Shown here one piece after another: positions 1,928 to 5,107 of a stretch of 32,000 nucleotides of DNA. The stretch is from Candidatus Saccharimonadota bacterium (GTDB taxonomy: Bacteria > Patescibacteriota > Patescibacteriia > 2-12-FULL-60-25), in contig CP064964.1 in NCBI GenBank assembly GCA_016699205.1, positions 930,001 to 962,000 of the forward strand, in the 5' to 3' direction. Below the pieces are notes generated by a model. That model was given only the letters and a program-made list of their open reading frames with translations, ran no database searches and was not told where the DNA came from. The stretch's first letter is position 1; each line of letters opens with the position of its first letter. The translations under genes and the position numbers were made by a program.

Positions 1928-4900
1928 ATGAACCTTGTGTTTCAATTCTTTTTACGTTTGCGAAAGAATAGCGTATTTTTTCTTGTCGTATTCGCTTCTT
2001 TTTTAGGGATCGGCGTTTCAATGCCGGTTTTGGCGGCTACGTATACCGTCTGTCCTTCTGGTTGTGATTTTGACACGATTACGAATGCGGTCGCTGTTGC
2101 TACTTCACCGGATATCATCAATGTAGAAGCTGATTACGCTTCCACGACTGAGACATTCTCATTCAATTTGCCTAACGGGGTCACGCTCGACTGTCAAAAT
2201 AGCGGGGCGGTGATCGGGGTGGATGATGAATCGGCTCCGGTCTTTATCAATTCCCAGTCGGATAATATTTTTCGTAATTGTACGTTTTCTAACGTCGTTC
2301 TTCAGAATACGAATCAATCGAATGTACAGATTATCGATAATGTTTGGAGAGGTAATTCCCGCATCGATGCAAATACAGCAACCAACATTACGATTTCTGG
2401 TAATACGGCTACCGGCGAGAAAGGTCTGCGTCAAATTGCCGCGATCGATGCATCCAATGTGACGATCTCTTCAAATACGATCATGTCGTACGCCGGCCAA
2501 GGATTTGCTGGGCTTCGTATCGATTCTTCGACCAGTGTTCAGGTGACGAGTAATATCATTCAAGATAATACGACCACGACGAACGTCAATTATGACCTGA
2601 TCGGTATTATTAACGGTAGTTATGATGTGTATTTTGCATCTAATACTGTTTCCGAGCCGTATCTTACGAGTTTTGGTATGGGGATGAGCATGCTTCAGAT
2701 GTCGGCAAGAAATTTGACGATCGCGGACAACACGTTTCAAATGAACGGTTCAGGTGGCGGAATCGGTATCAATTTGAATGCAAATGACCGGCCGGTTTCC
2801 GCTGTTGTGCGGCATAATACGTTTGTACTCTGGCCGCTCTGTAGTGTTTGCAATGTGATTCAGCCTGGTGCATTTACTTCTTACACGATTCACGTTACTT
2901 CTACGTACAATTTAATCGTGAGTTTTGCTTCCAGTTCAGCAAACAACACCGGGCATTACGTTTCTGGAGCCGGACCTTCATCCAATTTGTTTGCGTTTAC
3001 GGAGTATGATGGTTTTGTCAATTTGAATGCAGCTAACGATCCTGCGAATTTTCCGGCTGGAACGGGCTCGGTTTATCGAGTGTACAATCCGCTCAAGACG
3101 GATGATGCGACGACGACCAACGATTACGAACAGGCTCCTTGGAGTGCGTTTCTTGACGTGAATGGTGCGTTGGATATTGGTGCGCGTCCGGGTGTTCGCG
3201 AGAATGTTTTTCAGGTCGATGCCGCCGGTACCATCGACTACGCGACCGTCGATGCGACAAATACGACGGCGATTATTTCTCATTTGCGCAGTAACGATAC
3301 CGTGAATTTGGCTGCCGGGACGTATTCACCGATCGTACTTGTATCGACCACAACGAATGTTGCGCTTTCTTCCGGTGTTTCGATTTTGGGCGCAGGGGTC
3401 AATACAATTATCCACGCATCAGCTTCAGGGAATGCGCTGCTTATCGACGGGATAACTGACTCTGTTTTTCGCGACTTCCGTCTTACGGGAGCTTCCTCTA
3501 CGGCAACATCGACTTATAGAATTACGCGCTCCCAATTCACTCAGGGTGGAACCGATTATGACGATGGCTCTGGTATCGGATTTCCAGATGCCGTTATTAT
3601 TGCCGGCGGAGTACCTTCCGGCGGTGCTTGTAATGCATCGCTTTACGATGCGGATAATTTTAATGTCACGACACTTGTTGGTGGAGCTACGGATGATTGG
3701 AATCTTTTTCTTATCGATTATCTTGGCAATAAACTTACATTGCTAGCTCCTGACCGATTTGTTCCTGATGCTGTCACGGCTTTAGGGTGTGGAAGTCCGG
3801 GAGCTGTCACTGTTGAACACGAGGTGAGTAGTATCTATACCGTTTCTTCAGGGTCGTATACGTACAATGCTGCGGCTGCGTCTTTAGCGGGCGTGTCGCC
3901 TAAATTCGGCGAAACGAATCCGCCTCGTTTAGATAGGACGGTTGTTGGTGCTACCGAGGCAGGGGTTGCGATTAACGATTCGAGTGGTAACACGTTTACA
4001 AACGTGACTTCAACAGGGAATTCTGTTGGCGTATTTTTAAGCGGAACGTCCACGAACAATGTGCTTACCGATGTTGTTATGGATGCCAACAGTCAATTTG
4101 ATATTCGCAGCAGCGCTTCAGGTGATAATACATTTATCGATTCCACGTTTGGCATCGGATCTGTCTCGATTACGGGTAATGGATTGGTGCTCGGAAAGTT
4201 TTCCGCTCGTGTTCGCACTCAGGACTCGTCATTAGCGGGTATTTCTGGAATGACGGTGAATGGTACTTCCGCCAATAGTGCCAGCTCGACTTCTCTTGTC
4301 AGCGGTGGAGCGGGATACTCGTCTTTCAGTAATGCTCTGCCTGCGTTCTCGCTTAGTTCCTCCTCCGCAATCGCCACAACGGGAGGTTTTAATCCGTACA
4401 CATGGACTTCCGTTGCAAACGCTTCCTACAATTCCGCAACGCTTTCCGCATCGTTATTGCAGCCGAGACAAACGATTACGCTTACGCTTACAGCGGCAAG
4501 TGCTGGTGGCGGTAGTCGTGGCGGTGGGAGTATCTTGATACCTCAAGGGAGTCTCACTCCGGTTGATGGCGGTTTAGCCGAGAGGCTTGCGGTATTTGCG
4601 GAAGCCGGTTTGGCGCCCGGAGATCTCGTGAAGTTGCCGAGTGACGGCGATCTGCTCACGCAGCATGATAGTACTGTTTATGAGCTTGGTACTGATGGGC
4701 GTCGTCACGCGTTTCCAAATCCATCGGTCTTTTTTTCACGGTATTGCACGTTTGCCAATGTCCGTATCGTCGATGGGGTTCTGGCGCGGATTCCGCTCGG
4801 TACGAACATGGCCTATGCTCCCGGTTTGAGGCTTATCAAGTTTGTCTCTGCACCAACGGTTTACCTTGTGCAATCTCCGAATGCTTTACGTGCAGTTCCG

Positions 4901-5107
4901 GATGAAGCAACCGCCGTACAGTTAGCCGGTTCCGATTGGGCCAAGCTTGTCTCCGATGTTTCGGATGCATTTTATAATGATTATGTCGTCGCGAACCCGA
5001 TCATGTCTGCAGCAGAGACTTTGGATCGCACGCCACCGCTTTCTTGCGGGAAAAAAGCATCTTTCTTTAGCGCCATTTTGAATAAGGCCTTCAATCCCTA
5101 CCGTTAA
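1928..5107 (+). CDS. Large secreted protein (1,059 aa): signal peptide, two right-handed parallel beta-helix (PbH1-type) regions, Ser-rich linker, C-terminal ~128-aa putative envelope-anchoring module
   Basis: N-terminus RLRK + hydrophobic stretch + VLA|AT resembles a signal peptide. CPSGCDFDTITNAVAVA...INVEADY followed by repeated N-x-T/S-I-x-x-N turns is typical of beta-helix/NosD-like domains. A second helix begins near IDYATVDATNTTAIISHLRSNDTVNLAAGTY. A GGGSRGGGS linker precedes the C-terminal module. Confidence 0.85.
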   Translation: MNLVFQFFLRLRKNSVFFLVVFASFLGIGVSMPVLAATYTVCPSGCDFDTITNAVAVATSPDIINVEADYASTTETFSFNLPNGVTLDCQNSGAVIGVDDESAPVFINSQSDNIFRNCTFSNVVLQNTNQSNVQIIDNVWRGNSRIDANTATNITISGNTATGEKGLRQIAAIDASNVTISSNTIMSYAGQGFAGLRIDSSTSVQVTSNIIQDNTTTTNVNYDLIGIINGSYDVYFASNTVSEPYLTSFGMGMSMLQMSARNLTIADNTFQMNGSGGGIGINLNANDRPVSAVVRHNTFVLWPLCSVCNVIQPGAFTSYTIHVTSTYNLIVSFASSSANNTGHYVSGAGPSSNLFAFTEYDGFVNLNAANDPANFPAGTGSVYRVYNPLKTDDATTTNDYEQAPWSAFLDVNGALDIGARPGVRENVFQVDAAGTIDYATVDATNTTAIISHLRSNDTVNLAAGTYSPIVLVSTTTNVALSSGVSILGAGVNTIIHASASGNALLIDGITDSVFRDFRLTGASSTATSTYRITRSQFTQGGTDYDDGSGIGFPDAVIIAGGVPSGGACNASLYDADNFNVTTLVGGATDDWNLFLIDYLGNKLTLLAPDRFVPDAVTALGCGSPGAVTVEHEVSSIYTVSSGSYTYNAAAASLAGVSPKFGETNPPRLDRTVVGATEAGVAINDSSGNTFTNVTSTGNSVGVFLSGTSTNNVLTDVVMDANSQFDIRSSASGDNTFIDSTFGIGSVSITGNGLVLGKFSARVRTQDSSLAGISGMTVNGTSANSASSTSLVSGGAGYSSFSNALPAFSLSSSSAIATTGGFNPYTWTSVANASYNSATLSASLLQPRQTITLTLTAASAGGGSRGGGSILIPQGSLTPVDGGLAERLAVFAEAGLAPGDLVKLPSDGDLLTQHDSTVYELGTDGRRHAFPNPSVFFSRYCTFANVRIVDGVLARIPLGTNMAYAPGLRLIKFVSAPTVYLVQSPNALRAVPDEATAVQLAGSDWAKLVSDVSDAFYNDYVVANPIMSAAETLDRTPPLSCGKKASFFSAILNKAFNPYR
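4619..5002 (+). other. C-terminal module (2 sub-repeats) homologous to the N-terminal module of the 20558..24439 protein
   Basis: GDLVKLPS...TVYELGTDGRRHAFPNPSVFFSRY..FANVRIVDGVLARIPLGTNMAYAPG / LRLIKFVSAPTVYLVQSPNALRAVPDEATAVQLAGSDWAKLVSDVSDAFYNDYVV aligns collinearly with aa 38-153 of the other protein. Confidence 0.7.

Follow-up and report, generated by a model that had tools for sequence, protein, structure and literature searches.

Two secreted proteins with a common module

The DNA analysed here, hereafter the window, is a stretch of 32,000 nucleotides (nt) from a Candidatus Saccharimonadota bacterium (GenBank assembly GCA_016699205.1, contig CP064964.1, positions 930,001 to 962,000), a member of the Patescibacteria or Candidate Phyla Radiation (CPR). 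Two of its open reading frames (ORFs) encode large secreted proteins that carry a common module at opposite ends. From the ORF list, the translations and, for the first of them, Pfam, ORF A (1928..5107) encodes a secreted right-handed beta-helix protein of 1059 amino acids (aa) with the module at its C-terminus, and ORF B (20558..24439) a secreted protein of 1293 aa with the module at its N-terminus. Both ORFs, and all their features described below, are on the + strand.

An earlier note on this DNA, made from the letters alone, had claimed that the two proteins share a module at opposite termini, and the comparisons bear this out. When the C-terminus of ORF A was compared with the N-terminus of ORF B by BLASTP, 47 of 120 positions were identical (39%), with one gap and E=4e-28. 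The translations at nt 4619-5002 and 20669-21202 agree with the letters quoted in that note. In addition, a hidden Markov model (HMM) of the family, built from 79 sequences with the two window copies among them, was run on the six-frame translation of the window; it found the module in ORF A (2.1e-37, aa ~907-1027) and in ORF B (2.1e-62, aa ~38-159) and nowhere else. The two segments are thus a homologous module of ~120 residues, with a similarity far beyond chance. The eight positions that are invariant in the family (Y12, R20, F23, P24, K66, Y74, W99 and Y114) are all kept in both copies. The module is rich in aromatic residues (F/W/Y, 13.8%) and close to neutral, a composition that, as far as sequence can tell, would be compatible with glycan binding.

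ORF A begins with a stretch read from the sequence as signal-peptide-like (1928..2035, MNLVFQFFLRLRKNSVFFLVVFASFLGIGVSMPVLA), followed by a body in which Pfam recognizes Beta_helix (1.7e-9, aa 170-300) and NosD (2.4e-6, aa 671-741). A Gly/Ser-rich linker (4493..4531, AASAGGGSRGGGS) leads from this beta-helix body to the module region; a comparable poly-G/S linker follows the N-terminal module copy of P0121, a family member described below. The module itself consists of two repeats of the EccB-like type discussed in a later section, each with the order β-β-β-α-β-α: repeat 1 at 4646..4828 (AlphaFold elements E15-17, E24-26, E32-34, H38-42 and E51-53) and repeat 2 at 4829..5002 (E75-78, E84-89, E92-96, H99-106, E114-117 and H119-124). 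The earlier note had placed the first strand of this copy at GDLVK (nt 4619), which has to be corrected, since BLAST, the HMM and AlphaFold all give GDLLT (nt 4646). By the same three methods, the preceding segment GDLVKLPSD (4619..4645) is more likely to lie outside the repeats, and it may be a short N-terminal extension of the ORF A module; the nearest relative, P0258, has a DLIKL segment upstream of its module in the same place. After the module there is a C-terminal tail of 34 aa (5003..5107), in which inspection of the sequence revealed no hydrophobic anchor and no LPXTG motif.

In ORF B, a signal peptide read from the sequence (20558..20659, ending …LALPSMASA) is followed by repeat 1 (20669..20848; AlphaFold elements E2-5, E12-14, E20-22, H26-32, E39-41 and H44-48), repeat 2 (20849..21037; E64-67, E73-77, E81-85, H88-95, E103-106 and H108-113) and an optional, divergent third repeat (21038..21202; E130-132, E140-143, E146-149 and H152-157). 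The third repeat is limited to a subfamily, since the alignments of most relatives extend over only ~69% of the 178-aa query. It should be mentioned that in the place of the third repeat many family members have an extension of ~25 aa after repeat 2, a conserved stretch with the approximate pattern [DE]-[FY]-x-P…I-x-x-D-K-x-L (P0026, P0093, P0157, P0168 and P0107).

The description of the module as two sub-repeats in ORF A and three in ORF B stands on the structural side, where the predicted models repeat one unit, and is weak on the sequence side. When repeats were aligned with hhalign, repeat 1 against repeat 2 gave E=0.006 with 20% identity over 54 columns, and alignments against repeat 3 were short (14-22 columns). 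The bodies of the two proteins had been described as unrelated, a beta-helix in one and an S-layer-like array of beta-sandwiches in the other. The beta-helix of ORF A is confirmed by Pfam, but Pfam does not show the beta-sandwich of ORF B, whose body gave a sub-threshold fn3_5 match only and no match in a search against Protein Data Bank (PDB) sequences. An S-layer-like nature of ORF B is plausible.

Neither window copy of the module is matched by any model of Pfam-A (2025 copy) or NCBIfam (2026), and 26 diverse family members gave the same result. As had been supposed, the module is not SLH, CWB2 or LysM: a search with hmmscan against Pfam at E<=1, using both modules and these 26 members, found no SLH (PF00395), CWB2 (PF04122) or LysM (PF01476), and no SH3b, PG_binding_1-4, SPOR or choline-binding repeats. 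Our literature searches turned up no earlier account of the module in CPR, nothing relevant on "EccB-like" or "PlyCB-like" domains, and no named CPR wall or S-layer anchor. Two kinds of match to PDB sequences were rejected as artefacts. The designed "Bagel" propellers reached E=2e-9 with the window segment 20669-21202 because a single 18-aa motif match (VYAV.PNG.LRW) is summed over eight identical blades; and antibody heavy chains, at 7e-5 with the family profile, share the motif AVYYCA (AVYY.A) of their conserved framework region.

A large family of exported proteins in Patescibacteria

A word-indexed search with the ORF B copy gave at least 488 matches, and the same kind of search found only two close relatives of the ORF A copy. 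A profile search, exhaustive over 1.84 billion cluster representatives, showed the real extent of the family: with clusters formed at 50% identity, 5393 had E<=1e-3, and in 2251 of these the value was 1e-30 or lower. At the genome level, where each GTDB species was represented by one genome, at least 536 module loci were found, with two or more loci in several metagenome-assembled genomes (MAGs). Where the titles of these genome matches name a lineage, they are almost only MAGs of the Patescibacteria group, Uhrbacteria, Falkowbacteria and Parcubacteria. Many other titles read "uncultured Gammaproteobacteria", which looks like a generic placeholder label, and one match comes from a MAG titled Acutalibacteraceae, in which it lies on a contig of 2.5 kb. 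Our best explanation is that the module is a widespread extracytoplasmic domain specific to Patescibacteria, in which two repeats of ~55-60 aa stand in tandem and a third may follow. Its sequence is 50-80% identical across CPR lineages in which the cargos are unrelated.

The position of the module and the signs of export were surveyed in 259 family members. In 236 of them the module is N-terminal, typically at residues ~30-160, right after a signal peptide or a lipoprotein signal; in 13 it is C-terminal, as in ORF A; nine have two copies, often one per end, and one has an internal copy. A hydrophobic N-terminal segment is present in 242 of the 254 members that start with Met, and the exceptions look like fragments. 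The clearest evidence of position independence is P0121, a DUF3048 protein of 1053 aa that has one copy of the module at each end (aa 29-149 and 904-1025). These counts agree with the idea, put forward from the two window proteins only, of a portable module found at either end of otherwise unrelated proteins. Every partner domain found was extracytoplasmic.

The partners are very diverse. Redox proteins are represented by cupredoxin/plastocyanin domains, which make up a large share of the 120 matches listed, and by thioredoxin/redoxin domains. Peptidases and wall-active domains include M23, S8, C25, trypsin-like, S11 DD-carboxypeptidase and beta-lactamase-type domains; other enzymes are GH10, GDSL lipase and glucose/sorbosone dehydrogenase. 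There are also inhibitor and binding domains (chagasin, Kazal inhibitors, ice-binding-like and laminin-G-like domains), DUF3048, and Ig-like arrays of Big_7, Big_1, invasin D3 and fn3. P0093, of 177 aa, is a stand-alone protein formed by a signal peptide plus the module.

Among the 80 best related genome loci, which were compared with their 3-kb flanks, 53 contain orthologues of the ORF B body, with identities of up to 72%; the closest relative, at that value, is in a Candidatus Uhrbacteria MAG (L004). Many cluster representatives of ~1200 aa bear the module at aa ~40-165. ORF B can thus be regarded as a member of a conserved CPR family of ~1200-1300 aa, and as a candidate major surface protein.

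Predicted fold and similarity to EccB

AlphaFold2 models were made with family alignments. For the three repeats of ORF B the model (med22081b1e3d) reached a predicted local distance difference test (pLDDT) value of 96.9 and a predicted template modelling (pTM) score of 0.88; for the two repeats of ORF A (m8bb0a4a3833d) the values were 91.8 and 0.77. Since only two close relatives of the ORF A copy had been found, its model was built on the general family alignment. In both models each repeat has the order β-β-β-α-β-α.

When the models were compared with the PDB by Foldseek, the first 11 matches of the ORF B model and the first 10 of the ORF A model were all to the periplasmic domain of EccB, a core component of type VII (ESX) secretion (E from 2e-3 to 0.17, with probabilities of up to 0.92 and 0.98). 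The first match other than EccB had E=0.74 for the ORF A model, and E=1.6 with a probability of 0.03 for the ORF B model, so that EccB is the sole family with a meaningful Foldseek probability for both. The published EccB repeat consists of a four-stranded sheet and two helices in about 50-55 aa (PMC4769845), a description that the predicted repeat unit of the module matches. EccB (repeats R1-R4, PF05108; structures 3x3n, 4kk7, 5cyu and 7nps) also resembles the module in having tandem units of ~50-60 aa outside the cytoplasmic membrane, and by eye the two share the motif G-x-L-[IV]-K…[VF]-Y-[VY]…G-x-[KR]-[RH]-x-[IVF]…L-x-x-[IL]-P-x-G.

The differences are equally clear. EccB has an N-terminal cytoplasmic segment with a transmembrane helix, a central six-stranded core domain and four repeats, whereas the module carriers have signal-peptide-like N-termini, two or three repeats and unrelated bodies. 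EccB is a fixed subunit of a secretion machine, encoded together with eccC, eccD, mycP and esx genes; in contrast, the module is mobile and fused to many cargos. No genes of a type VII secretion system were found in the window, as compared with a true ESX locus (L083). At E<=1, PF05108 (T7SS_ESX1_EccB) matched neither of the two ORFs nor either module; among the 26 diverse family members it matched one, with E=0.26.

We regard the module as a very large CPR-specific family of EccB-type repeats that serves as a mobile surface module; the family is new and the fold is known. The proposal that it could be a new domain holds in so far as we are dealing with a real and portable extracytoplasmic module that neither Pfam-A nor NCBIfam contains, but not as regards the fold, which AlphaFold and Foldseek assign to the EccB type.

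In the viral library of Foldseek (BFVD), the best matches were A0A1I9SA71 of Rhodococcus phage Weasels2 (E=4.9e-5) and A0A345MGB2 of Streptomyces phage LukeCage (E=4.1e-3), followed by a CHAP-domain protein (probability 0.96) and, more weakly, by amidases, a lysozyme and a lysin. Unlike the module proteins, the Weasels2 and LukeCage proteins are stand-alone polypeptides of ~100-115 aa; they are uncharacterised, and no function can be transferred from them. The hosts of the matching phages are Actinomycetota, the phylum that carries EccB. At the sequence level, a PHROGs family of unknown function, phrog_9616, matched the ORF B module weakly (E=1.3e-4), as well as three of the 26 diverse members of the module family (best E=6.5e-6). 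Within the first 50 kb of the Weasels2 genome the HMM did not detect the corresponding gene, and when the module was compared by tblastn with 50,697 phage genomes there was no real match. The PG_binding_4 / Ldt_fm N-terminal domain (1zat, 2hkl) was discarded as a candidate: it appeared with the ORF B model only, at noise level (E=1.6-5.1, probability of at most 0.03), and was not among the Foldseek matches of the ORF A model.

Proposed wall anchoring and alternative explanations

SLH, CWB2 and LysM are wall anchors of monoderm bacteria formed, like the module, by short tandem repeats that can be located at either terminus, on S-layer proteins as well as on unrelated exo-enzymes; also as in the module, there are many paralogues per genome, behind a signal peptide. 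They gave no sequence match to the module. The folds differ too, with a helical bundle in SLH, a Rossmann/toprim-like α/β domain in CWB2 and a βααβ unit in LysM. In four respects the module behaves as such anchoring domains do: it is restricted to exported proteins, its position is free, its cargos are many and unrelated, and genomes have several paralogues.

The explanation that we favour is as follows. The carriers would be exported by Sec and the signal peptide then cleaved; the module would bind non-covalently to a conserved constituent of the cell's own wall, either peptidoglycan or a wall-linked glycan, and in this way would keep the cargo on the surface of a monoderm cell, which lacks an outer membrane. 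The cargo so retained would be the beta-helix protein in ORF A, a large Ig-like candidate surface-layer protein in ORF B and, in other carriers, cupredoxins, thioredoxins, peptidases, peptidoglycan-active enzymes or a glycoside hydrolase. The module would then be a functional CPR counterpart of SLH, CWB2 and LysM. We infer both the ligand and the anchoring role, and we consider the chances of this complete explanation to be evenly balanced; in general terms, our analysis suggests that the module is likely to be a wall-anchoring module of a new variant type.

Several observations point in this direction. The conservation of the module across lineages with unrelated cargos suggests an invariant ligand. 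The near-invariant residues are largely aromatic or charged, and with the aromatic-rich, near-neutral composition this is a pattern often seen in glycan-binding sites, to judge by the sequence. Genes for MurC and MurB are present in the window, and from their presence the module-bearing organisms can be taken to make peptidoglycan. Among the partners, M23, S11 DD-carboxypeptidase and beta-lactamase-type domains have the wall itself as their target. A connection of the fold family to wall binding has also been proposed, as the published account of EccB compares its repeats to PlyCB, a wall-binding protein (PMC4769845), and the viral Foldseek matches mentioned above include the CHAP-domain protein and, more weakly, amidases, a lysozyme and a lysin. 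PlyCB, of the streptococcal phage endolysin PlyC (PDB 4F87), brings its catalytic partner to the wall, the same role as that proposed here for the module; in contrast to the module, it is a single chain of ~72 aa that works as an octameric ring, to which the cargo is not joined covalently. The resemblance of the module to PlyCB is second-hand and weak. Since the fold is that of EccB, which has been likened to PlyCB, and the sequence similarity is marginal, anchoring is plausible and unproven.

On the other hand, there are results that weigh against wall anchoring or against the relationship with EccB on which it leans. It has been stated explicitly that peptidoglycan binding by EccB repeats is not demonstrated (PMC4769845). 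PlyCB (4F87/4F88) is not in the top 50 Foldseek matches of either module model. In the ESX complexes 7nps and 7np7, which are among the Foldseek matches, EccB repeats presumably make protein-protein contacts. Stand-alone proteins of the P0093 type may indicate that the module has a role of its own beyond anchoring a cargo. The global template modelling (TM) scores to EccB in Foldseek are low (0.25-0.35), since the superposition is limited to the repeat units; EccB has its core domain between the repeats, which are arranged in another way. Finally, we compared the module profile by hhalign with an EccB profile of 39 sequences, built from the genuine eccB of a Mycolicibacterium plasmid that was located by tblastn with ESAT-6. 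The overall comparison was not significant (E=0.089, probability 0.6), nor were the alignments per repeat, which were collinear and had P=0.03-0.05. It should be noted that the repeats of EccB, compared with one another, gave P=0.0014-0.23, a range that contains the module-EccB values. Because the overall comparison is not significant and the values per repeat are no worse than those of EccB's own repeats, the result agrees with remote homology without proving it; homology between the module and EccB is plausible, but is shown at the level of the predicted fold only.

The same structural relatives lend themselves to another explanation, in which the module binds a protein, be it a lattice of the ORF B type, a membrane complex or another copy of itself, and the cargo is docked on a proteinaceous layer. 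The only solved structures with this type of repeat are those of EccB, and in the ESX-5 and ESX-3 complexes (7nps, 7np7 and 6sgy) the periplasmic domains of EccB are reported to contact one another. The ORF B family, with its 53 of the 80 best loci, is moreover the commonest large carrier of the module, and PlyCB forms its ring as an octamer (PMC4769845). However, for a sequence that stays 50-80% identical across diverse CPR lineages and dozens of unrelated cargos, an invariant ligand, small or polymeric, is a better fit than a protein partner that co-evolves, and no such partner was identified; we therefore regard docking to a protein as rather unlikely, and as the best placed of the alternatives to wall anchoring.

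If the ligand were a polymer of another cell, the module would act as an adhesin or lectin that binds the surface of the host and presents enzymes and adhesins to it. Cultivated Patescibacteria are described as episymbiotic, the fold is similar to that of phage proteins, lysin-associated ones included, PlyCB provides the precedent of binding a streptococcal wall carbohydrate, and hydrolases, proteases and protease inhibitors are among the partners. Nevertheless, the commonest partners include housekeeping-type redox proteins (cupredoxin and thioredoxin) and enzymes active on the bacterium's own wall, which have no obvious reason to be located on a host, and the hosts are diverse whereas the module is nearly invariant, so that this explanation seems to us improbable. 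Least probable by our estimate is a passive stalk, spacer or intramolecular chaperone that acts after export and has no specific ligand, because its usual place right behind the signal peptide and its compact, in prediction highly stable structure are outweighed by its occurrence at either terminus and in two copies, by near-invariant Y, W, R, K, D and E residues that in sequence look more like ligand contacts than like a spacer, and by the poor conservation that spacers normally have.

Significance for the CPR cell surface

Much of bacterial diversity belongs to the Patescibacteria or CPR, which live attached to other cells and whose envelope biology has seen very little experimental characterisation. 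A domain that has no annotation, occurs in more than 5000 protein clusters and is fused to most kinds of exported protein offers a simple sequence handle for the CPR surface proteome, and the analysis nominates the ORF B family as a candidate major surface protein. It also gives the first evidence from outside the Actinomycetota that bears on the possible function of the periplasmic repeats of EccB. If the module does bind walls, it could be used as a tag to label or capture CPR cells.

A wider proposal would make the EccB-type repeat the main wall or S-layer anchor of CPR, the ORF B family, encoded behind an ECF sigma / DUF5667 gene pair, the long-sought CPR surface-layer protein, and the EccB repeats descendants of an ancient wall-binding module. 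We put it forward tentatively, and we think it somewhat more probable that it will fail than that it will hold; if true, the EccB-type repeat would be, for a large part of the radiation, the equivalent of SLH in Bacillota.

Genetic neighbourhood of ORF B and ORF A

Directly upstream of ORF B, on the + strand, there is a gene for an extracytoplasmic function (ECF) sigma factor together with a DUF5667 gene (18550..20308; Pfam Sigma70_r2/r4 and DUF5667). The limits of the two genes are 18550-19113 for the ECF-type sigma factor and 19019-20308 for DUF5667. The gene order sigma-DUF5667-module is observed in 48 of the 80 best related loci (L002, L004, L006, L031, L033 and L034 among them), so the pair is a conserved neighbourhood of ORF B and not part of the module. 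Since its gene lies beside that of the sigma factor, DUF5667 could act as an anti-sigma factor. As 53 of the 80 loci have ORF B orthologues, the large surface protein may be under a dedicated control of the envelope-stress type. The DUF5667 ORF as listed starts at a TTG and shares 95 nt with the sigma-factor gene. It probably begins further downstream, given that alignment with the related loci sets in at about the point where the sigma gene ends.

The next gene after ORF B, immediately downstream of it, encodes a Wzy_C / O-antigen-ligase-like membrane protein with TPR repeats (24483-26849, +), and GT4 glycosyltransferases are encoded nearby (26846-28021, -; 16875-18050, +). The Wzy_C family includes protein O-oligosaccharyltransferases. 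These genes could mean that ORF B is glycosylated, or they could build the wall polymer to which the module would bind.

Two ORFs of 263 and 268 aa lie directly upstream of ORF A (365-1931, +); neither has a Pfam match or a counterpart in the 80 related loci. The second overlaps the start of ORF A by 4 nt, which suggests co-transcription.

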